Assembly: GCA_963759805.1 (NCBI GenBank)
Contig: CAVXAT010000015.1
Location: 1-14,726 of the forward strand
Source of the DNA: an uncultured bacterium
GTDB taxonomy: Bacteria > Babelota > Babeliae > Babelales > RVW-14
DNA: 14,726 bases
Direction of reading: 5' to 3'
Under the pieces are notes generated by a model. It saw only the letters and a list, made by a program, of their open reading frames with translations. It had not been told where the DNA came from and did no database searches. This document shows, one piece after another, positions 1 through 12,740 of this stretch. A program made the translations under genes and the position numbers. Each line of letters opens with the position of its first letter. Positions within the stretch are counted from its first letter, which is position 1.

Positions 1-284
1 TATAATAATTTGAGCCGCTAATTCTTTTTTTTCGGCATTATAGATTCCAATATTGGCTTCTGGCCAGTACTTTCGAAAAGTCTTTTTCGTTTGTTGAATT
101 AGTTCATCCAGATGAGAAATAATTAGAGCTTTTTTATTGAGATGTTTTGCGATGGCCGCCATCAGGATAGTTTTACCACCTCCTGTTGGAATAACTATAA
201 GTTGACGGTTAATGCCGTTTTGAGATTCTTTTATTACGCAATCAAGAGCTTCTTTTGATAGTTTCTTAGTGCCATTTGATCCAT
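1..284 (-). pseudogene. 5' part of a superfamily 2 helicase (type III restriction Res/DEAD-like), with a 1-nt frameshift near codon 11; runs off the window edge
   Basis: Manual translation: MDQMALRNYQK, frameshift at the T4 run 253-256, then EALDCVIKESQNGINRQLIVIPTGGGKTILMAAIAKHLNKKALIISHLDELIQQT...IGIYNAEKKELAAQIII. Contains a Q-motif (LRxYQ), Walker A PTGGGKT (169-189) and motif Ia (xxELxxQ). SD-like AAGGA precedes ATG 284. Read unshifted, the frame stops at TAA 236-234. Confidence 0.8.
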
Positions 285-380
285 ACAATTTCCTTGCAGT
301 TTTCCTTACGTTTTCATATGTAAAAAATAATTAATAAAAACTATCTTAAATTTAATATATGACTTGAAAATTAAGCGGGC

Positions 381-397
381 CCCACTAAAGCCCACTA
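381..397. repeat. Direct repeat CCCACTA x2 with a 10-bp period in the divergent intergenic region
   Basis: CCCACTA at 381-387 and 391-397, a GC-rich patch within very AT-rich DNA. Confidence 0.5.
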
Positions 398-447
398 TTT
401 AAAAAAGACTGAATTTTACGTGATAAAATCAAGCCCAGAATTCATTT

Positions 448-475
448 TTGACTTTAAAAGCCGTTCTGGTAACTT
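448..475 (+). promoter_or_regulatory. sigma70 promoter for the T-box/aspS transcript
   Basis: TTGACT (448-453), 16-nt spacer containing an extended -10 TG (467-468), TAACTT (470-475). The predicted TSS at ~482 lies just before T-box Stem I (486). Confidence 0.7.
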
Positions 476-485
476 AAATTCGAGA

Positions 486-712
486 GGCGATGACGATGCT
501 GACACATCTGAGCCAAGGAAAGAACGCCGAATTTGATTATCAAGTTTGTTTAGTAGAATCCTTCGGGTGTGCCCGTGATAGCACAAAGTCATACCAGTGC
601 ATGGTGAGGCTGAGGGGTCAGACTGAATTGATCTGGCAAGTAAGGTGGCACCGCGAACAGCAATTCGTCCTTACATATTTATTAGGCAACTTATTAAATT
701 CTGCGGGAGCCA
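486..712 (+). ncRNA. T-box riboswitch, class II/translational type with ultrashort Stem I and Asp (GAC) specifier
   Basis: Stem I 486-514: GGC-GATGAC-GATG-[CTGACA]-CATC-TGA-GCC, a K-turn plus a 6-nt loop with GAC at 501-503. Stem II 515-563: AAGGA/TCCTT with AAGAAC and TAGTAGAA S-turn strands. Stem IIA CGGG-TGTG-CCCG (564-575) with pseudoknot partner CACA (582-585). Stem III GTCAGA/TCTGGC (617-637). Antiterminator-type fold GTAAGG-TGGCACC-GCGAA...TTCGT-CCTTAC (640-674). Sits directly upstream of aspS. Confidence 0.93.
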
Positions 713-715
713 AAT

Positions 716-1540
716 ATGTTTTCAGAACAACGAATTTTATCATCTAATCTTAAGAACTATCTCAATAAAACAGTTAGTGTATCTGGATGGTTGCATAAGA
801 AGCGCAATCTGGGGAAAATTGCCTTTCTTGTTGTACGTGACAGGCACGGGCTCATGCAGATCGTTATTGATAATCAAACAGAAATAGCCAAGCTTGAACA
901 TTTACATCAAGGCTCGATACTCAACATTTCCGGTATGGTTGTTGATGCCCCAAAAACTCAATTTGGTTGTGAATTACACAACGCTTCAATCGAAGTTGCC
1001 GTCGCCGTAATAGATCCAAGTCCAGTTGAAATAGATAAGCCAATTGATCATCGGCAAGAAGTTCTGGCTAACATTTTTGATTGGCGGATTCTGACCATGA
1101 GAAATGTAACAGAGCAAGGCATATTCAAAATTCAATCTGGTGTGAGTGATGCAATTCGTTCATTTTTAACGTCAAATGACTTTGTTGAATTTCACAGTCC
1201 AAAATTACTCGCTGGTTCAACTGAAGGTGGAGCTGAAGTTTTCAAACTTGATTACTTTGGTAAGCAGGCAACGCTTGCTCAATCTGCTCAATTCTATAAA
1301 CAGATTATGGTTGGAGCATTTGAACGTGTATTCGAATTTGGTGCAACTTATCGCGCAGAGCCAAGCATGACATCTCGTCATCTAACTGAATTCATAACAG
1401 TTGACGTTGAGATGGGTTTTATAAATGGCATGGAAGATATTATGCAGACAATCAACGATATGATCCTGCATGTGGAACAAATCGTCTGGCAAACTTACGA
1501 AAAAGAACTGCTCGCACTTAATGCAACAAAACCTTTGCTC
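716..1540 (+). pseudogene. aspS: Aspartyl-tRNA synthetase (short archaeal/eukaryote-like, probably non-discriminating type), 5' part, interrupted by an IS
   Basis: OB-fold anticodon-binding domain (GWLHKKRNLGKIAFLVVRD), EFHSPKL, LAQSAQFYKQ and class II motif 2 YRAEPSMTSRHLTEF. The ORF tail after 1540 (YSDPHCQ...) is IS-derived. Confidence 0.92.
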
Positions 1541-1565
1541 TATAGTGACCCCCATTGTCAAGACA
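1541..1565 (-). repeat. IRR of the IS3 element, containing an outward-facing perfect -35 (TTGACA, 1561-1556)
   Basis: Inverted match to 3245-3269; TGTCAA on the plus strand at 1556-1561. Confidence 0.85.
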
Positions 1566-1594
1566 AATTTTTAACTTATATTTCAGAATTTTTA

Positions 1595-2515
1595 TCAGGC
1601 CATTTGTATCCCCATTGATTTATTTTGTTGAACGATGATTTTGCTATTACATACAAAAGCCAATGATTCGAAAGTAAAATCAGATTGGTCTACTGCAATG
1701 ATAGCTCCATAGTAAACTTCATCTGGTTTTTTATATTCGAGTGATTGGTGAAAGCGTTCTCTATTATAAAAGTTGATATAGTTTTTTATAATTAATCGCG
1801 TCTCAGCAATGTTTTCAAGAACATAAAAACACAGTGCTTCATATTTAATAGTTCGCCAGAATCGTTCAATAATGATGTTGTCTGCCCATCGACCTATTCC
1901 ATCCATACTAATTTTGATACCTTCTTTTTCTAAACGAGCAACCCATCTTTCACTTGTAAACTGGCACCCTTGATCACTATTTAAAATCTCAGGCTTACCG
2001 AGTACGAGAGCCATTTCCAATGCTTCAAGACAAACGTCTGTATCGAGATATGGTGACAATGCCCATCCCATAATCTTGCGACTAAAAACATCGATAAGAC
2101 AAACCAAATAAACAAACCCACCTCTTATTTTTACGTATGTGATATCTGTTTTCCAGACTTGGTTTGGGCGGCAAACTCGTAATCCTCTTAAAAGATATTT
2201 GTACACCTTGTGTTCCTTGTTTGGAATGCTAGTTTTTTTATAAGGGGCAACTGCACAAAGACCTGTCAACGTCATTAGCCGCTGTGTTCTTTTAATGTTG
2301 TGGTTAAAGCTTTTTTCGATAAGAACTTCGTGTATTTTTCGATATCCATAAAATGGATGTCTCTCATATTCGTTGCGTATCTCATCCATAATCACCTCGT
2401 CTTGGTTGTTGGCCTTCTTTGGCTTGTAATAAAGGCTACTTCGATTTATACCGAGCAGATCGCATTTTCTGGACAAGTTCAATTTGTTGTTGTGCTCAAT
2501 CCATTGCTTGCGCAC
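1595..2515 (-). CDS. IS3-family transposase OrfB (HTH_21 plus rve integrase core), expressed as an OrfAB fusion
   Basis: YGYRKI, PNQVWKTDITY (D), NSDQGCQF (D), DNIIIERFWRTIKYE (E) and YNRERFHQSL; the DDE triad is intact. Confidence 0.95.
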   Translation of the reverse strand: MRKQWIEHNNKLNLSRKCDLLGINRSSLYYKPKKANNQDEVIMDEIRNEYERHPFYGYRKIHEVLIEKSFNHNIKRTQRLMTLTGLCAVAPYKKTSIPNKEHKVYKYLLRGLRVCRPNQVWKTDITYVKIRGGFVYLVCLIDVFSRKIMGWALSPYLDTDVCLEALEMALVLGKPEILNSDQGCQFTSERWVARLEKEGIKISMDGIGRWADNIIIERFWRTIKYEALCFYVLENIAETRLIIKNYINFYNRERFHQSLEYKKPDEVYYGAIIAVDQSDFTFESLAFVCNSKIIVQQNKSMGIQMA

Positions 2516-2551
2516 TTGGATATCTAGCGACTGAGCACTTGTACTAAAAAA
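2492..2551 (-). promoter_or_regulatory. Programmed -1 ribosomal frameshift signal joining orfA2 and orfB
   Basis: Slippery heptamer T TTT TTA (2551-2545) in the orfA frame, a 6-nt spacer, then a 10-bp stem GTGCTCAGTC/GATTGAGCAC (2538-2529 / 2501-2492). The -1 frame is open from the heptamer into orfB. Confidence 0.85.
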
Positions 2552-2802
2552 TTGCGCTCTTCCTTTACTTGTTCAAGGTCTGCCAAAATCTTGTCATATG
2601 TTTCTTCTTTTTTAACTTTTCTTTTGTCTGCAAAAAGTTCGTTGCCATGCTCTTCTAGGTGTTGCTTCCATGCATATGCTTGGCATGTTGAAATATTAAA
2701 TTCTCTACAGATGGTATCAACTGATTTGTCGGCCTTTATCATAGCTAAAGCCACCTTAAGTTTAAGCTTGTCATCATGACTTTTTTTCGTGTCATCACTC
2801 AT
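2524..2802 (-). CDS. IS3 OrfA (HTH_Tnp_1-like), frameshift-competent copy
   Basis: MSDDTKKSHDDKLKLKVAL...CREFNISTCQAYAWKQ HTH, C-terminal coiled coil and ERNFL end. ATG 2802 is preceded by AAAGG, a better start than the TTG at 2826. Confidence 0.9.
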   Translation of the reverse strand: MSDDTKKSHDDKLKLKVALAMIKADKSVDTICREFNISTCQAYAWKQHLEEHGNELFADKRKVKKEETYDKILADLEQVKEERNFLVQVLSR

Positions 2803-2850
2803 GAGAATGCCTTTCTTGTAAAGCAAATTTTTAGATTTAACATTCTCATG
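2800..2850 (-). promoter_or_regulatory. Perfect 10-bp inverted repeat that would sequester the orfA2 start codon
   Basis: CATGAGAATG (2800-2809) and CATTCTCATG (2841-2850); ATG 2802-2800 lies in the 3' arm on the mRNA. Confidence 0.6.
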
Positions 2851-2903
2851 CTAATTCATTATTATTGTCGTTGTACACAGTTTATCCATTTGCGTTTATT
2901 GCA

Positions 2904-3179
2904 TTAAAGCGCCCGCAATAATGACTCACGTTCTACAATAAGCTTGCCTATAATCACATGAAACTTTTCAACATCTAAACTTTTTTTTGCAGCCATTTTT
3001 TCACTCGAAAAAACTTCAATGCCTCGATCTTCAAGCCGTTTTTTCCATGCATAAATTTGACTTGTCGCTAATGCAAATTCTTGGCATAATTCAGCTATTG
3101 GCCTATCAGCCTTTATAGCTGCCAATGCAACTTTTAGTTTAAATTTGTTGCTGTGGGTTCTGCTTACTTTGTTACTCAT
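2904..3179 (-). CDS. Second IS3 OrfA-like HTH protein inside the same IS (no slippery site)
   Basis: 29 of the first 57 residues are identical, ungapped, to the 2524-2802 OrfA (KLKVALA.IKAD, C.EF, Q.YAWK). Ends ERESLLRAL* without the TTTTTTA motif. Confidence 0.88.
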   Translation of the reverse strand: MSNKVSRTHSNKFKLKVALAAIKADRPIAELCQEFALATSQIYAWKKRLEDRGIEVFSSEKMAAKKSLDVEKFHVIIGKLIVERESLLRAL

Positions 3180-3244
3180 TTAATGCCCCCCGGGCTCATT
3201 GTTATAACTAATATTTTTAAAGTACTTATTTTCTCAAGTTGCAC

Positions 3245-3269
3245 TGTCTAGTTTTATGGGGTCAGTATA
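3245..3269 (-). repeat. IRL of the IS3 element, beginning 5'-TATACT
   Basis: Inverted match to 1541-1565; lies upstream of the orfA genes. Confidence 0.85.
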
Positions 3270-3770
3270 CTTTCCCCAAAATTTCCAGTCGTGACCTTGC
3301 AGGAGCTGCACGAGCTTTGCTTTGAAAAAACAGGTCAAGACTTTAGAAATGAAAAAGATCCAAGCCCATTTGAAGAACGTTGGATTTGCTCATATTCTGC
3401 AGAGAATTTGGGTAGCGAAGCAGTATTTATTACGGGCTTTCCAGCAAGCGAAATGAAATTTTATCACTATCGTAGTGAATCCAATCCAAGTATTGCTCAG
3501 CGATTTGACTTGATCTTTCGTGGGGTTGAAATCATTACAGGCAGCCAGCGCGAACATCGCTATGACAAGCTAATTGAACAACTCAAGGCAATGGGTGGAA
3601 ATCCTGAAGATTCTGGCTTTCAATATTATCTGCAAGCTTTCAAATATGGGATGCCTGCGCACGGTGGATTTGGTTTAGGGCTTGAACGATTGGCTCAGAA
3701 GATCATTGGACTTGGTAATGTTAAAGAAGCATGTATATTCCCACGGGATATTAACAGATTGGTGCCTTAA
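3270..3770 (+). pseudogene. aspS: Aspartyl-tRNA synthetase, 3' part
   Basis: Open frame from 3270: LSPKFPVVTLQEL...FDLIFRGVEIITGSQREH...YGMPAHGGFGLGLERL (motif 3)...FPRDINRLVP*. It is in frame with 716-1540, and the reconstructed protein is 440-441 aa. Confidence 0.92.
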
Positions 3771-5406: not shown

Positions 5407-5931
5407 ATGGCAATAATGATAAACAGATGCACCTTTAGACCGATGATTCAGGAAGATTGCCCAATCATGACTACAGCCATTGATACGCTCGGGTGGAATT
5501 CGCCAGCCAAACCATTCCAGAAATATCTGGAAGAACAATTAAGCGAAACTCGCTTTGTATGGGTTGTTTACTGTGAAGACAAATTTGTTGGATATGTCAC
5601 TTTAAAGTTGAATTCTGATTATCCGCAGTTCAGTCTTCAGGGTATTCCTGAGATCAATGATTTAAATGTACTTCCAGAATTTAGACGACGTGGTATTGCT
5701 TCAAAGTTGTTGGAGTTGGCTGAAAATGAAGCTAAAAAAAGAGGGTTTAAACAAATTGGTTTAGGTGTTGGGTTATATTCAGATTATGGCCCAGCACAAA
5801 GGCTCTACGTGAAAAGAGGATATGTCCCAGACGGTCATGGAATAACCACAAAAAATAAGCAACTTGGATACGGAGACACGACAATTGTTGATGACGATTT
5901 GGTGTTGTGGTTTGTGAAGATGTTGAATTAA
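5407..5931 (+). CDS. GNAT-family N-acetyltransferase
   Basis: Acetyl-CoA motif A (LNVLPEFRRRGIASKLL) and YGPAQRLYVKRGY. The start could be 5407 or 5416. Confidence 0.9.
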   Translation: MAIMINRCTFRPMIQEDCPIMTTAIDTLGWNSPAKPFQKYLEEQLSETRFVWVVYCEDKFVGYVTLKLNSDYPQFSLQGIPEINDLNVLPEFRRRGIASKLLELAENEAKKRGFKQIGLGVGLYSDYGPAQRLYVKRGYVPDGHGITTKNKQLGYGDTTIVDDDLVLWFVKMLN

Positions 5932-5943
5932 AAGGCTAAAGCA

Positions 5944-6717
5944 ATGGTTCTGAATAAATACACAGAAATCAACGAGCTTATCAAAGAGTTATTAAATGGT
6001 ATTCAAGCCGTACTCGGAAATAAGTTGGCAGGCCTTTATCTTTATGGCTCACTTGCAATCGGTGATTTTGATGAAAACATCAGTGATATCGATTTATTGT
6101 GCGCCACAACAACAAATATAGATGAAAATGATTTCGAAAAGCTCGATCAGATGCATAAATGGTTTGTTCAAAAATATGAACAGTGGAATGATCGCCTTGA
6201 GATTGCGTATTTATCGATAGATACCTTACAATCGCCCGTAATTCAACAAGATCAAATTGCCATTATCAGTCCAGGGGAGCCATTCAATATTAAAAAAATC
6301 GGAGCTGATTGGCTGATTAATTTCTACGTTATTCGCGAACAAGGAATAACTATTTGCGGAGATGATTCCAAAAAGATCATTAAACCAATTTCTAAACAAG
6401 AATTTATTGATGCCGTAAAAAGTCAAGCGCTAGAATGGCGTGATTGGATTTCGCATACAAAATATTCTCGTTCGTATCAGGGTTATGCGATTTTAACTAT
6501 GTGCAGAGCCTTATACGCATGTAAGACAGGAAAGCAGCCCTCCAAAATAAATGCCGCTCTGTGGGCTATGAAAGAATTACCGGAATTGACTGAACAAATT
6601 CAAGCCGCACTTCAATGGCGCAAGGAGTATAAGCGTATGGATATAAACCATGAGTCAACATATCCAGAAACACTTAAATTTGTTAATTGTATTATTGATA
6701 TGATTATAAAAGGTTGA
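5944..6717 (+). CDS. AadA/ANT-like aminoglycoside nucleotidyltransferase family protein (pol-beta NTase plus DUF4111-like helical domain)
   Basis: LYLYGSLAIGDFDENISDIDLL, RLEIAY, YAILTMCRALY and SKINAALWA. Confidence 0.85.
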   Translation: MVLNKYTEINELIKELLNGIQAVLGNKLAGLYLYGSLAIGDFDENISDIDLLCATTTNIDENDFEKLDQMHKWFVQKYEQWNDRLEIAYLSIDTLQSPVIQQDQIAIISPGEPFNIKKIGADWLINFYVIREQGITICGDDSKKIIKPISKQEFIDAVKSQALEWRDWISHTKYSRSYQGYAILTMCRALYACKTGKQPSKINAALWAMKELPELTEQIQAALQWRKEYKRMDINHESTYPETLKFVNCIIDMIIKG

Positions 6718-6722
6718 TAGTT

Positions 6723-7673
6723 ATGGATATAAATTACGAGCAGTTTGCTGAAAAAATCATTGCGTTTCATTTCAATCAGATGCCCAAATATATCAAGCGA
6801 ATAACGATTGGCATTTGTAATGAGGTTTATGATGTTGGCCTTGGTGATCAAGAAATTATTATACGTCTGAGCATGCAGGATAAATATTTGATGGGATCGC
6901 ATGATCATATAACAAAACTGAAAGCACTGGGAATTAAAGTTCCAGAGATTTTGGCTGAGGATTACAGCAAAACCAAATTTCCATTTTCATATCAGATTCA
7001 AAGCAAGATTGAAGGGCATGACCTTGGCTGCGTAATAGAAACCCTTGCAGATGAACAATTGATGTTATTAGCCAAAGAAATCGTAAATATCTTCAACAAA
7101 ATTAAAACCATACCATCAAGCAATAAATTTGGAGTCATCTGGGGTGGCGGCAACAATGATGTTAGCGATACCTGGACTGAAAGAATGAGAATATGGATAG
7201 ACGAGTCTCTTGGGCGTGGTTACAATACTGGCATAATGAATGATGATATTGCCGATCTGGCAGATGGTCTTTATTACGAATATCAATCCTATTTCGATCA
7301 AGTTAAACCAACAACTTATTTTGGGGATATTTGCTCCAAAAATGTGATGATAACGAATGGTGCATTTAGTGGACTTGTCGACTTAGATGGCCTAACGCAA
7401 GGTGATCCACTGGAGGCTATTGGGCGAATAAAGTTAAGTTGGTACGGAACTCACCACGGCAAAGTTTATACTGATGCGATCATGGATGAAATGCAGCTTG
7501 ATGCGATACAAAGAAAAATAGTTACAGTATATTCTCTACTAAACCAGATCTCATGGATGTGTGAAAATGGGATTCAATTCAATCAAAACACTAAACCTGT
7601 TGTGGATAGAAATAAAGAACTAGCAGATAAAAAAATAATTGATGCTTTGGCTGCAGAGTTTAAAATAGTCTGA
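6723..7673 (+). CDS. Aminoglycoside phosphotransferase (APH)/choline-kinase superfamily protein
   Basis: GICNEVY, IIRL, GIKVPEIL, catalytic GDICSKNV, Mg-binding VDLD and GDPL. ATG 6723 is preferred to TTG 6714. Confidence 0.82.
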   Translation: MDINYEQFAEKIIAFHFNQMPKYIKRITIGICNEVYDVGLGDQEIIIRLSMQDKYLMGSHDHITKLKALGIKVPEILAEDYSKTKFPFSYQIQSKIEGHDLGCVIETLADEQLMLLAKEIVNIFNKIKTIPSSNKFGVIWGGGNNDVSDTWTERMRIWIDESLGRGYNTGIMNDDIADLADGLYYEYQSYFDQVKPTTYFGDICSKNVMITNGAFSGLVDLDGLTQGDPLEAIGRIKLSWYGTHHGKVYTDAIMDEMQLDAIQRKIVTVYSLLNQISWMCENGIQFNQNTKPVVDRNKELADKKIIDALAAEFKIV

Positions 7674-7703
7674 ATATATGTTAAAACTTGGTCAGGAGAT
7701 CTT

Positions 7704-8423
7704 ATGGCAAAAGTTCTTATTGGGGCACTGGTAGGCATGGGCCCAAATTCTACGGCACCATTTTATGACGCTGTAATGAACTACGCAAGAACGTTATACG
7801 GCGCAAAAAATGATATTGATTTTCCAGAAATGGTTATGATTTCTCTGCCGACTCCATTTGTTCCAGGTGCTGCGCTTGACGATTTAAAAATGATTTCGAT
7901 ATTAACAGACGCGGTGCAAAGGTTAAATCGCTTTGGTGTGAACTACATTGTTATACCGTGCAATGTTGTACATAGATATTATGACGACATGCAGCAGGTT
8001 TCGGCTGTGCCAATATTAAACATCATAGATATTGCAGTGAATAGATTACTGGAAAACTCATCCCAAACAGCGCCAATTGCTCTGATTGGAACTCGCAGCA
8101 CAATTGATGCAGGTTTGTATCAGCAGCGGTTAACTGAAAAAGGCATCAAGATTTTTCATACTCAAGAATTACAACGCAAAGTCGACGGACTGCTTTTAGA
8201 ATTAAAGAGAAAAAATGAATCAGAGTTGGCAAGAGCTTGTTGGTATAATCTTGTAAAATACCTTGAGAAAAATTGTTGTGCTGCAGGAATAATTGCTTGC
8301 ACCGATATTTCACCTCTTATCGATTTTTACACCGAAAATTTAATGTTGATAGATTCGATGGACGCTTTGGCTCAAGCAACAATTGAAGAGTTCATGCGGT
8401 TGAGGGCAGAGCAGCATGTCTAA
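7704..8423 (+). CDS. Aspartate/glutamate racemase family (RacX/YgeA-like)
   Basis: GMGPNSTAPFY; both catalytic cysteines are present (IVIPCN and IIACTD); SD AGGAG at 7694-7698. Confidence 0.9.
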   Translation: MAKVLIGALVGMGPNSTAPFYDAVMNYARTLYGAKNDIDFPEMVMISLPTPFVPGAALDDLKMISILTDAVQRLNRFGVNYIVIPCNVVHRYYDDMQQVSAVPILNIIDIAVNRLLENSSQTAPIALIGTRSTIDAGLYQQRLTEKGIKIFHTQELQRKVDGLLLELKRKNESELARACWYNLVKYLEKNCCAAGIIACTDISPLIDFYTENLMLIDSMDALAQATIEEFMRLRAEQHV

Positions 8424-8931
8424 AAATTTCACGTTCAAACCGGTTGATGCAAATGATCTGCCTCTTTTATACGCATGGTTTAAAAAACCACACGTCGATC
8501 TATGGTGGCCAGTGCCAGACGAGCAAGAAGATTTTTTTAAATCATTCTTGGAACGAATTCGTGCAGGAGTAAAGAAGCCATACATGGTTTTGTTAAACGA
8601 TTTGCCAATTGGATACATTCAAAGTTACAGCATTAACAAAACGACACATTCATGGCTACCGAAATTACCCAGCGATGGAAATGTTGTTGGCATTGATCAG
8701 TTTATTGGTGAGCCGGATTATCTTTATAAAGGATTTGGACCACTTTTTATAAAACAATTTGTTGATGATCTTATCGCAAACGATCCAAGCATTACAGTTA
8801 TTGTTGATCCTGACCCAACAAATTCTGTGGCAATAAGATGCTATGAAAAGGTTGGATTCAAAAGGTTTGGCGTATATCAGGCTCCTTGGGGACCTGCATT
8901 GGTTATGACTCATAGTCAATATAAAAATTAG
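8416..8931 (+). CDS. GNAT acetyltransferase, AAC(6')-Ib/Ie-like (Acetyltransf_8-type)
   Basis: PHVDLWW, PIGYIQSY, GIDQFIGEPDYLYKGFG and DPDPTNSVAIRCYEKVGF. The start overlaps the racemase stop. Confidence 0.88.
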   Translation: MSKNFTFKPVDANDLPLLYAWFKKPHVDLWWPVPDEQEDFFKSFLERIRAGVKKPYMVLLNDLPIGYIQSYSINKTTHSWLPKLPSDGNVVGIDQFIGEPDYLYKGFGPLFIKQFVDDLIANDPSITVIVDPDPTNSVAIRCYEKVGFKRFGVYQAPWGPALVMTHSQYKN

Positions 8932-9077: not shown

Positions 9078-10406
9078 ATGCAATTGGTTAGATCTTTAAT
9101 TTATTCAATTTTTTTTATTTGCATTGTAGTAAGCGCATCTATGTGTGCTGACCAAAGTAATTTTGAAGATAAAGCTGTTCAACAAGGAATAACGGCGAGG
9201 TTTTTTTTATCTGAATTAACTGTCCCAACTAACATGCCTAATGGTTCTTATGTGGATGGCCTAGAGGATGTCCTTAAGGAAATTTTAAAATCTGGTAGTT
9301 CAACTCAAAAAGAAACTGCTGCGAATTTTATTAATTACATGCTGTTTAACTACAAATCAGAAGATTGGGTTGATAACAAGGACTTTAGTTTAGTAAGGGT
9401 TTTGTTTTCAGATGAATCGAAAAGAGAAAAATTTTTAAATTTGTGCAAAGATGTGCATGCAAGGCAAACCAGTGTCATTTGCAATCCATCAGATAAAGAT
9501 AAAGCAGCTTTCATGGACTTTATAAATCGTTGCAATGCTGCAATTGACTGCAATACTGGAATTAAAGATGTTATCGAGGATATCAGTCATTTAACGCTGG
9601 AATCATGCAACTACAATTTCAACAAGGATTTATTGAAAATCTGCACCAGGCTCACAAAGTACCCTGAATTCTTTGATGTAGGCTTAAAGTTTATGCAGGA
9701 ATACAGTGAACTGGGTAGTCCATTTAGTTATGATGATGAATTTCATAAGTTCTATAGCAAATTAATCTTTAATAATACGGATCGATTTTGTACAACAGAA
9801 AAAATACAACAATACGTATTAAGCGATACTCAAAGTTGCAAATTAATTGGCGCTCTTGTGATAGGAATGCTTATCTTTAAAGAATTTACCAGCAATGATT
9901 TACACGCATGTAAAAATGGTTACTTATATTTATATGATCTAGCAAATATAATCAGATACATCAGACTAAATTCTGAAGATAAAGTTCATGACTTTATTTG
10001 GAATGGATTTAACGATTGTTACGCTAATGCTGATTTACAGGATCAGCTTGATTCATTGTTTAGCGAGCATGATAATAGCCTACTGCGTAAAGATTTATTT
10101 ATTGCAGGAATGTTTTTTTCAAGAGCTTATTCGTACCAAAATGTTAATTACAATTTCTTAGATATTTCATGTATTTACGGGCTACTAAGTTCAATTGGGT
10201 ATAATGATCAAAACATCGTATATTTTTTGGACAGAGCCAGAAGCGAACAACCTACAAGCCTTGAAGATCTTATTGATTCTTGTTCTGGTCACACATGCTA
10301 TTGCCATGATTGTCTTCTTGAAAAGGAAAAAAGTGATGGCTTCAGTGAAATTGATTTTAATGATATTGGCCTTATCGATGGTTTCAGTTGTTATTGCACA
10401 AATTAA
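9078..10406 (+). CDS. Secreted hypothetical protein with a Cys/His-rich acidic C-terminus
   Basis: 442-aa ORF with SD AGGGG, an N-terminal signal-like segment and C-terminal CSGHTCYCHDC...CYC. No family recognised. Confidence 0.75.
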   Translation: MQLVRSLIYSIFFICIVVSASMCADQSNFEDKAVQQGITARFFLSELTVPTNMPNGSYVDGLEDVLKEILKSGSSTQKETAANFINYMLFNYKSEDWVDNKDFSLVRVLFSDESKREKFLNLCKDVHARQTSVICNPSDKDKAAFMDFINRCNAAIDCNTGIKDVIEDISHLTLESCNYNFNKDLLKICTRLTKYPEFFDVGLKFMQEYSELGSPFSYDDEFHKFYSKLIFNNTDRFCTTEKIQQYVLSDTQSCKLIGALVIGMLIFKEFTSNDLHACKNGYLYLYDLANIIRYIRLNSEDKVHDFIWNGFNDCYANADLQDQLDSLFSEHDNSLLRKDLFIAGMFFSRAYSYQNVNYNFLDISCIYGLLSSIGYNDQNIVYFLDRARSEQPTSLEDLIDSCSGHTCYCHDCLLEKEKSDGFSEIDFNDIGLIDGFSCYCTN

Positions 10407-12740
10407 GTTAATTTGACTTTCAATTGTGTTAATTTCGAGCTTAATAGTTCAAGCTTTTGTTTTAGTTTAGTTAACGAGTTTTTTAGATGCTTAAGCTTTA
10501 ATCGTAGATTTGTTTGTTGTTCAAAACTTGTCCACTCAGATTGTGTAATTTCAGGAGATTCTTCAATAGCACGCATAATCTCTGCAGGGTCAAGATCTAT
10601 AAGAAATTCTTTAAGCGGTTTAGTTTGTCTTTTAAAAAGATCTCGAAGTACGAATAACTGAGCCTGATATTCAACAAGATTTAATTTTGCCAGGTATGTT
10701 AGTCCATAAAAATTAAGATTGCCCTCGTGGCTGCCTTTCTTGGACTCTTTAAATTTCCACAAGAATTGATCTTTGTTTGTTGGGGGAACTGGCGGTTGAG
10801 GATTGAGGTTTTTGGCAGAGTAACTTAAAAACCAAGACTTTCCCATAAATTCAAATGAGATCGTTATAGACGCTGAATCCTTTATAAAGAAACCTGTTAG
10901 CTTAGTGTTTATAACAACATTTTGCAGTGTAATCCTCTGCTTTACCTGTTTTTTAATATCCAAGAATTTTTTAAACTCATCCTTGTCATGCAGGATTTCA
11001 GAAAAATCGTTGAACCCTTCAAGCTCTTTAATAAAGAAAGTTTTTGAAGAAGTTCTACCTCGTAAAATTAAAAAGCTATCTCGCAAGAAATTGAGGATTC
11101 CATTTTGAACATCTGGGACTCCCGCATTTGGCAGGCTAATCTTAGCAAATAAATTAATGCTGTCTCCATGCTGCATTGAAACAATCTGTGGATAAATATA
11201 AAAATCTTTTGTTACGGCTACACCCTTACAGATAGAATCAATGCATGGAATCGACGGAAAATATCTATAAAGACTGGACATCCATGGCGGTAATTTATTT
11301 GCAGGCCATGATGCCTTTTGAGGTGCCAGCACAATGTTCGCAAAAACAATCTCTGAATATAATAGCAAAAACAGCTTATCTTTAATTTCAATATGCCCGT
11401 CTATGCCAAAACTTAAAGCATGTGCCGTCTCAGCTCCGCTTATATCAATTTCCTTTAATTGAACCTTTCCCAAAGCTTTTAAAATGTTTGCATCAGTCAT
11501 ATTTACGCAGCTATTAAAAACCTGAAACCAACCGACTTCAGGAATTAAAGTCTGAGGAACATTATTAGGGCCAAGCAATCTAAGATACCAAAGTTTAGGT
11601 AAGGATACTTTACTTAAAACACTGAGTAAGCCGCTTCTTTGCTCCAATTCTCTTATTTCTGCCTTTATTTTTTTCATTGCTTCAACATCAGCAGTCTCTT
11701 TTTTTGGCTCTAATTGCGACTAATTTTTCTACAAAATTACTGTATCCATTTTGAAAGTTTTCTAATGCATCAAAGTACGCCCTAAGATTGACGTTGGATG
11801 AATCTTCCATTGTCCAGTCCGATGTTGTTGGAGCATCAGTGATTGCATCAACTATTATGAGATATTTTATTCTGACGGGCATCTTGTTCTTAACCTGGAT
11901 TAAATCAAGATTTTTACCACCTGCAACACACGTTGAAATTCGCACGGATTTCGTATAAATCTTGTCGTTAAGGAAAAGTAAGGTGGTGGCCATATCGTTG
12001 ACTGGCAGGCCTGCTACAGAGGACTTTTCAGGGGCATCAGAAGAATAATCTCCATGCCCAGACATGTATACATTGCAAGGCTGTGAGAGTTTTAACGCAT
12101 CAAGGTCTTCAACAGGATTGAAAATCGAAGACATTTGATTAGGATCAAATTTTTTATAGATTGTTATATCTAATGCCTTTGGCGCTGCAATATCGGATGA
12201 CAAATCTTTTGCATATGGAATACATTTCAGATTTTCATCGGACAATAACCTTTTGGCTTCTTCTGGCGCATCATCAGCCCAGGCTATTTTGGGAAATCTA
12301 ACTTTCACAGAACCACTATACACTTCATTGGATGGGATATCTATTTTAGTCCATTTGGTTTTATTAAAAATTGGGTTGTCGTAATTGTGTGGAACCAATG
12401 CTAAAAATTGCGTATCTTGTATGTGTAGAAATCCCAATCAGATAAGTTAAAGTTAATTTTTACGAGAATATGATCTGGTTTATTTGTGTATTTTCTGAGT
12501 ACAAGATTTTTTAAGACATAATCTGACACAATGGCAATATCTAGAGCACCTTGTGAGATCGCACATGCAAAATCGTATGTTATTGCTCCACCAGTTCCCT
12601 TGCAAAGCTTTTCTTTACTACTTCCAATAAAAAAACCAATTTATCGTGGTTTAACATTTTCACCAACAACAGGCTCAACCTTTGCTGCAAAAATAGTTGA
12701 TCCTTAAGAAAAACCCCCATAACATCATTAGCTTACGCAT
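10403..12740 (-). pseudogene. Large secreted hypothetical protein (~775 codons) broken by at least 4 lesions; includes listed ORFs 11688-12437 and 10403-11677
   Basis: AAGGAG plus ATG 12740 gives MRKLMMLWGFFL, frameshift ~12704, GSTIFAAKVEPVVGENVKPR, TAA 12643-12641, IGFFIG...LSDWDFY, frameshift ~12422, IQDTQFLALVP...AIRAKK, A7 run 11705-11699, ETADVEAMKKIKAEIRELE. The pieces join into one protein-like sequence. Confidence 0.75.

Follow-up and report, generated by a model that had tools for sequence, protein, structure and literature searches.

A predicted terminator-less T-box leader of an interrupted aspS gene in Babelota, whose tRNA-binding bulge may pair with the ribosome-binding site

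The window analyzed here is a 14,726-nucleotide (nt) stretch of DNA, taken at its full length, from an uncultured bacterium of the phylum Babelota (GenBank assembly GCA_963759805.1, contig CAVXAT010000015.1). Near its beginning, an Asp-specific T-box leader with an ultrashort Stem I (positions 486-674, plus strand; Rfam E value, 7e-11) precedes aspS, here a gene for the archaeal-type nondiscriminating aspartate--tRNA(Asn) ligase. The gene is split into an N-terminal part (716-1540, plus strand; NCBIfam PRK05159, E value of 9e-82, profile positions 4-273 of 438) and a C-terminal part (3291-3770, plus strand; PRK05159, E value of 3e-52, profile positions 284-438) by an IS3-family insertion sequence (IS) element on the minus strand (1541-3269), recognized by protein matches and copy comparison. 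The reading that we favor, with some reserve, is that the leader is a translational T-box without a terminator, in which, when uncharged tRNA-Asp is lacking, the bulge would pair with a GCCA and the Shine-Dalgarno (SD) sequence of the gene's own ribosome-binding site.

The Rfam family RF00230 matches positions 481-675 with an E value of 7.4e-11 and 52.7 bits, which does not reach the gathering score of 93 bits because 74 Stem I positions remain unmatched in the Rfam alignment; at gathering thresholds, the whole window yields zero Rfam matches. Stem I (486-514), delimited by sequence, Rfam alignment, and pairing in homologues, is 29 nt long in total and consists of K-turn flanks (486-493 and 509-514), a 4-bp stem (495-498/505-508), and a 6-nt apical loop (499-504) carrying the specifier GAC for Asp (501-503). 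Two Stem I positions left free by the pattern used to find homologues are paired in 61 of 61 of them, with 4 and 5 pair types, and the homologue alignment holds covariation in both Stem I and the K-turn stem. Downstream lie Stem II (515-563), in which the RF00230 alignment places the S-turn motif AGUA (552-555), and Stem IIA/B (564-585, with the stem 564-567/572-575), whose loop 568-571 is complementary to 582-585 in a predicted pseudoknot and, judged by eye, covaries with this partner among homologues. A GAG linker motif with Stem III (612-637, Stem III being 617-637) and the antiterminator/antisequestrator (640-674) follow, both placed by the Rfam alignment and folds. The latter is composed of helix A1 (640-645/669-674), the 7-nt bulge UGGCACC (646-652), and helix A2 (653-657/664-668). 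The K-turn, the Stem II S-turn, Stem IIA/B, and Stem III are all present, the UGGC of the bulge fits the G-CCA end of the genome's tRNA-Asp, and both the specifier and the bulge N agree with the aspartyl-tRNA synthetase (AspRS) gene and the tRNA-Asp discriminator. By every sequence feature tested save the Rfam score, the leader is a T-box. It shares with the Firmicutes transcriptional T-boxes (Bacillus subtilis glyQS and tyrS; RF00230) the T-box consensus, the A1/bulge/A2 arrangement, and the NCCA-UGGN logic, but it lacks their long Stem I with a double T-loop and their terminator hairpin with a U-tract. As the original prediction had claimed, no terminator-like site is found on the plus strand between 350 and 900; a promoter scan found no site, and between the antiterminator and the AUG there are only 41 nt.

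The same prediction held that the bulge itself serves as the anti-SD, with TGGCACCGC (646-654) pairing with GCGGGAGCCA (703-712) across GGGAG (705-709) and GCCA (709-712), ahead of the ATG at 716. All of these coordinates are correct, and the pairing exists and covers the SD. The GGAG of the SD (706-709) begins at -10, where more of the genome's first-ATG starts have it than anywhere else (57 of 857); SD use was judged by such positional enrichment, since the 3' end of 16S rRNA was not found in the assembly. When the arm 640-655 is paired with the start region, the duplex reaches -14.8 kcal/mol, which 7 of the genome's 895 start regions equal or beat; among the 595 that bear an SD the number is 5, and a GCCA lies equally close to the start in 14 of the 895. 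The helix 646-654/703-712 was the top constrained state in six of six folded stretches (five with Stem III held and one beginning at 640 without Stem III), accounting for 39 to 74% of the ensemble, with the antiterminator and its free bulge taking 9 to 22%. Two details of the claim did not survive. The proposed extension by AG/CT and AATT/AATT gives -10.0 kcal/mol when forced, versus -14.5 kcal/mol when the core helix has a different interior, and the 3' strand of the antiterminator, said to have no downstream complement, pairs over the start codon in a weak rival helix (673-719, comprising 673-680/712-719 and 685-687/709-711), while 662-668 finds a complement in 730-736. This 3'-strand fold makes up just 2 to 27% of the modelled ensemble. 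The helix 646-654/703-712 is thus the best single model for the window, by a predicted margin of about 1 kcal/mol, and the competition over the SD would run via the bulge and not via the 3' strand; in the best fold of the window, the bulge covers three SD bases.

Homologous leaders were gathered by a protein scan of genomes, which kept 80 of 155 loci, and by a scan of metagenomes for the Stem I pattern that ignored the expression platform and returned 60 loci. The pattern was present at 72 loci, three of which were dropped because the sequence ends before the T-box; the 69 with a readable antiterminator correspond to 61 distinct leaders. Under a fixed rule that asks for a hairpin of the 3' strand and then 6 or more U within 8 nt, 40 of the 61 are of the terminator type and 21 are terminator-less. 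Another terminator-less leader found in a later protein search (L164; L numbers are our handles for leaders) brings the totals to 62, 40, and 22. Outside all counts stand L009, L014, and L019, which have a T-box without the Stem I pattern and look terminator-like by eye; L093 and L138, whose terminators the rule apparently missed, and L088, which has no OFF helix, are among the 22 and outside the set of 19 referred to below. Many terminator-type members belong to Patescibacteria or to unassigned metagenome contigs. In the AspRS tree, the window falls into a clade of eight terminator-less leaders (support, 97/99) nested among terminator-type ones, and the high-GC terminator-less leaders group apart in a clade of their own, represented in the tree by 7 of 10 members, the others being too short. 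RF00230 had three matches in 35 family genomes, one of which (L004) was discarded since it lies inside a ribosomal-protein-like coding stretch, viral contigs held 0 matches to the Stem I pattern, plasmids held no match, and no new members emerged when proteins were searched in 401 genomes around G261 and in 301 around G262. A high-GC T-box pattern aimed at actinobacterial ileS leaders gave two matches, both by chance in coding DNA. No sequencing run shared half of the sequence words looked for, and no RNA run was listed as containing them.

In the terminator-less relatives, the best predicted OFF fold is often a three-way junction (L143, L003, L006, L164, L013, L091, L109, L112, L122, L137, and L135). 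It retains A2, and the 3' strand, or the sequence that continues it, is paired with the SD or, in L006, forms a hairpin just ahead of it. The freed 5' strand of A1 and the bulge pair with the spacer between SD and start, often reaching the start codon, and the base opposite the bulge U sits at -2 to -6 relative to that codon. Homologues would thus usually keep the classic 3'-strand hairpin, to which the bulge helix is added as an outer helix, mostly over the SD-start spacer. Accordingly, the bulge is not in general the only anti-SD, since in relatives the SD is still paired by the 3' strand. The full ensemble of the relatives lies 5 to 13 kcal/mol below the ON fold, which points to a co-transcriptional decision rather than to the direct competition, at equilibrium, of uncharged tRNA with the ribosome-binding region, versus about 1 kcal/mol in the window, which is without the relatives' inner hairpin.

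Several comparisons suggest that this pairing is more than fortuitous. Between -14 and +1, CCA occurs in 12 of 22 terminator-less leaders, in two separate lineages, versus 1 of 40 terminator-type leaders, and GCCA occurs in 6 of 22 versus 0 of 40, five of the six being among the eight members of the window's clade; in 61 aspS starts at which no T-box motif was found, the corresponding numbers were 4 and 0. Six of the 8 members of this clade have a partner for UGGN with no more than one wobble, compared with 68 of 857 starts in the genome and 1 of 40 terminator-type leaders. Within the predicted helix, both sides of a pair change in concert: the fourth A1 base forms A-U in L143 and L003 and C-G in the high-GC clade, the bulge N pair is A-U in L013 as opposed to C-G, and a G-C has become G-U in L122; L164, found after the hypothesis had been formed, shows a 9-bp helix over the entire 7-nt bulge. 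In the high-GC members, the cognate arm beat the arm of the other clade in 10 of 10 swaps. Without the bulge helix, the OFF fold is weaker than the ON fold in 9 of the 19 terminator-less leaders, and all nine pair the bulge with a probability of ≥0.5, whereas a strong classic helix (L111, L085, L105, and L141) goes with an unpaired bulge (Spearman coefficient of 0.60, P = 0.007, over the 19). Taken together, these patterns lead us to favor selection for pairing between the bulge and the ribosome-binding region in terminator-less members.

A number of observations weigh against this reading. Every structure considered here is a predicted fold, and that of the window varies with the stretch folded: the probability of the pair 647-711 was 0.46, 0.34, 0.97, 0.06, and 0.002 in five unconstrained stretches, and the gap between OFF and ON is small. 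The short probe 640-649 behaves in an ordinary way (73 of 895 starts do as well; shuffle P = 0.20), and with it the high-GC members reach locus percentiles of 0.08 or above. Swapping arms in the window's clade left the cognate arm better in three cases, equal in three, and worse in two of eight. The high-GC members are closely related, their background comprises no more than 10 control starts, one of these reaches -12.8 kcal/mol, and since kin are not independent, P values are overstated. The register of the bulge helix shifts among members, such that the changes in pair type are read from predicted folds rather than from fixed columns, and the raw duplex medians (-13.5 in terminator-less versus -3.6 in terminator-type leaders) are confounded by GC content; when the last 12 nt were shuffled, 8 of 21 terminator-less versus 2 of 40 terminator-type leaders reached a P value of ≤0.05, and against windows of their own locus 6 of 21 versus 0 of 40 did. 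Finally, the bulge is unpaired (probability of <0.5) in 6 of the 19 terminator-less leaders and is paired downstream in 9 of 40 terminator-type leaders, suggesting that the freed G-rich arm often pairs by chance.

These chance pairings also speak for a conventional geometry, in which the 3' strand, together with its continuation (673-680/712-719 and 662-668/730-736), makes the OFF state and the pairing of the bulge is an accessory consequence of the freed G-rich strand. Such a fold is the minimum free energy structure for 600-740 and for 612-720, and a helix of the 3' strand or of the A2 loop is kept in all relatives. We nevertheless regard it as unlikely for the window, where this fold holds the smaller share of the ensemble given above, where leaving the arm and the bulge free yields only -10.9 kcal/mol against -14.1 kcal/mol for the ON fold, and where the GCCA shared with much of the clade would go unexplained.

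Alternatively, the ancestor of this leader may have switched, and the copy in the window may be decaying together with a redundant, IS-split gene, so that it no longer responds to tRNA. The genome also encodes a complete bacterial AspRS, an AsnRS, GatB, and Rho, and the redundancy of the split aspS beside the bacterial AspRS and AsnRS is a further point against a working switch. The protein search found this aspS in only 5 of 261 genomes of the host phylum, and many of its relatives belong to Patescibacteria, for which reasons aspS and its leader were likely acquired horizontally. Decay would also fit the lost inner hairpin and the narrow OFF margin. Every sensor motif is intact, on the other hand, and the insertion looks recent, because the five near-identical genome copies of the IS3-family element share 99.8 to 100% identity; the split may even be an assembly artefact at the IS. 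In all, a relic without function appears improbable to us. The margin of about 1 kcal/mol would indicate either a re-equilibrating switch or a decaying one, and the window is the weakest case of the bulge helix, possibly on its way to decay. The least probable alternative, that control acts by termination, either Rho-dependent or weak intrinsic, and that the pairing of the ribosome-binding site is incidental, can draw on the genome's Rho, on the 40 of 62 family members of the terminator type, and on U-rich spacers like eroded U-tracts in some clade members, but it is opposed by the lack of a terminator-like site on the plus strand, the short distance to the AUG, and the conserved position of the bulge partner near the start codon, and Rho polarity after a block of translation would be a consequence rather than an alternative.

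How might bulge pairing operate? In T-boxes, the anticodon binds the specifier first, and the free NCCA then pairs with UGGN and stabilizes A1 (PMC7583486, PMC7778990, PMC11297988). Applied to the leader favored here, uncharged tRNA-Asp would, while transcription proceeds, bind first to the specifier and next to the bulge, with about 60 nt of synthesis available to it before the GCCA at 709-712 emerges; a tRNA on the bulge would lock helix A1 and leave the SD accessible. Should the tRNA fail, 703-712 would capture the bulge and the 5' strand of A2, hide the SD, and remove the second site of the tRNA, such that the OFF pairing would block the ribosome and a late-arriving tRNA alike. In the relatives, A1 would be dismantled without tRNA, its 3' strand going to the SD as a classic sequestrator and its 5' strand with the bulge to the SD-start spacer, and in the window, where the classic arm would have decayed, the bulge helix would carry the OFF state nearly alone.

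The mRNA's GCCA had further been proposed to mimic the 3' end of tRNA-Asp. Its letters do match (G-CCA), but a perfect partner of UGGC is always GCCA, and adding a single base 3' to a tRNA turns it into a mimic of charged tRNA (PMC12647780), so that the internal, 3'-extended GCCA is no mimic of an uncharged end. We also rejected docking of the GCCA into an intact antiterminator, given this extension and the additional pairing of the A1 5' strand in relatives. The internal GCCA would instead act as a strand-displacing decoy. The observation behind the original prediction is largely real, better than chance, and shared by relatives in two lineages, but its generality was overstated, the bulge helix being usually a second, outer lock. 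The geometry was likely derived from terminator-type ancestors at least twice; L143, L003, and L013 carry U-rich spacers after GGGC that resemble eroded terminator tails, suggesting a route from terminator to bulge geometry.

The nearest known systems are the actinobacterial translational ileS T-boxes (Mycobacterium and Nocardia; PDB accession no. 6UFG and 6UFM; PMC7583486), which likewise have a short Stem I with an apical specifier. They also share Stem II, Stem IIA/B, Stem III, and an antisequestrator with a 7-nt bulge, and they lack a terminator, as does the present leader, and sequester the SD in the OFF state, as it is predicted to do by only about 1 kcal/mol (PMC1262725, PMC7583486, PMC12647780). 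The leader differs in its Asp specifier GAC with aspS, in its Babelota host, and in a predicted OFF helix that uses the bulge and the 5' strand of A1. The published ileS sequestrator is itself an Mfold prediction and may already include the bulge. The terminator-type Asp members of the present family, in turn, share the Stem I pattern, specifier, and antiterminator with the leader, but in them the 3' strand enters a long hairpin with a U-tract behind it, and the start regions are without a partner for the bulge.

In published descriptions of T-box OFF states, a terminator or sequestrator captures the 3' strand of the antiterminator; work on sequestrators is so scarce that TBDB leaves them unpredicted (PMC7778990). 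In the literature covered, mostly the text of openly accessible papers, pairing of the bulge with the ribosome-binding site was not found described, nor were T-boxes in Patescibacteria (the candidate phyla radiation) or a short Stem I with an Asp specifier. Published work leaves open whether translational T-boxes take one co-transcriptional decision or re-equilibrate (PMC7583486, PMC11297988, PMC12647780), and the M. tuberculosis ileS sequestrator was found to be hard to reopen after transcription (PMC12647780). A buried bulge would give such behavior a direct cause, one that is concrete and mutable: once the OFF state had formed, tRNA could not reopen it. The family offers a natural series for this question, from terminator only through classic sequestrator only and both helices to the bulge helix nearly alone, with OFF margins of about 1 to 14 kcal/mol. 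It also runs counter to two published generalizations, namely, that all ultrashort T-boxes regulate ileS (bioRxiv 10.1101/2023.02.28.530422) and that transcriptional T-boxes generally require a long Stem I (PMC7583486), since the 40 terminator-type members are predicted transcriptional T-boxes without one. It is tempting to speculate, though we hold this more tentatively than the reading of the single leader, that a distinct OFF class evolved from terminator-type Asp/Asn ultrashort T-boxes on two or more occasions. An NCCA-like decoy in the spacer would fill the bulge in this class, making tRNA and ribosome-binding site rivals for one set of bases, and the window would be the extreme case, with the bulge as the sole working anti-SD.

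Four family members deserve mention in their own right. L164 (G045:C5:31179-31321) has AAC (Asn) in the Stem I loop, with the same architecture and the same nondiscriminating aspS, and by its sequence is a specifier switch within the window's clade. L142 is an Asp ultrashort T-box in front of an aspartate-aminotransferase-like gene (best NCBIfam matches, for a partial protein and below the cut-off), and L086 is another in front of a gene other than aspS, with an N terminus that we take to resemble peptidase E. The terminator-type L119 has, 180 nt further downstream, a bulge-complementary stretch immediately ahead of the start codon and is possibly under both levels of control.

At the aspS locus, the IS3-family element contains two orfA-like frames (2524-2826 and 2904-3179) and is flanked by TATA on both sides in 4 of 4 copies examined, which suggests a fixed target. 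The aspS copy from Parachlamydia (L159, identical with L013; G261:C301) has an in-frame TGA near the residue at which the IS splits the gene in the window. A second, seemingly independent copy of the locus at a contig end (G000:C3:23656-25196) was rejected as such: it overlaps window positions 1-1540 at 99.5% identity, with seven differences, among them a frameshift of aspS and two changes in the S-turn of Stem II, and the two are probably one locus assembled twice.

Elsewhere in the window, a terminator-like hairpin lies upstream of the leader on the minus strand (374-396), and two long convergent open reading frames, 9078-10406 (plus) and 10403-11677 (minus), have zero NCBIfam matches. The interval 5407-8931 holds an Asp/Glu racemase-family gene and a run of small genes that weakly resemble GNAT acetyltransferases and aminoglycoside nucleotidyl-, phospho-, and acetyltransferases, all below curated cut-offs.
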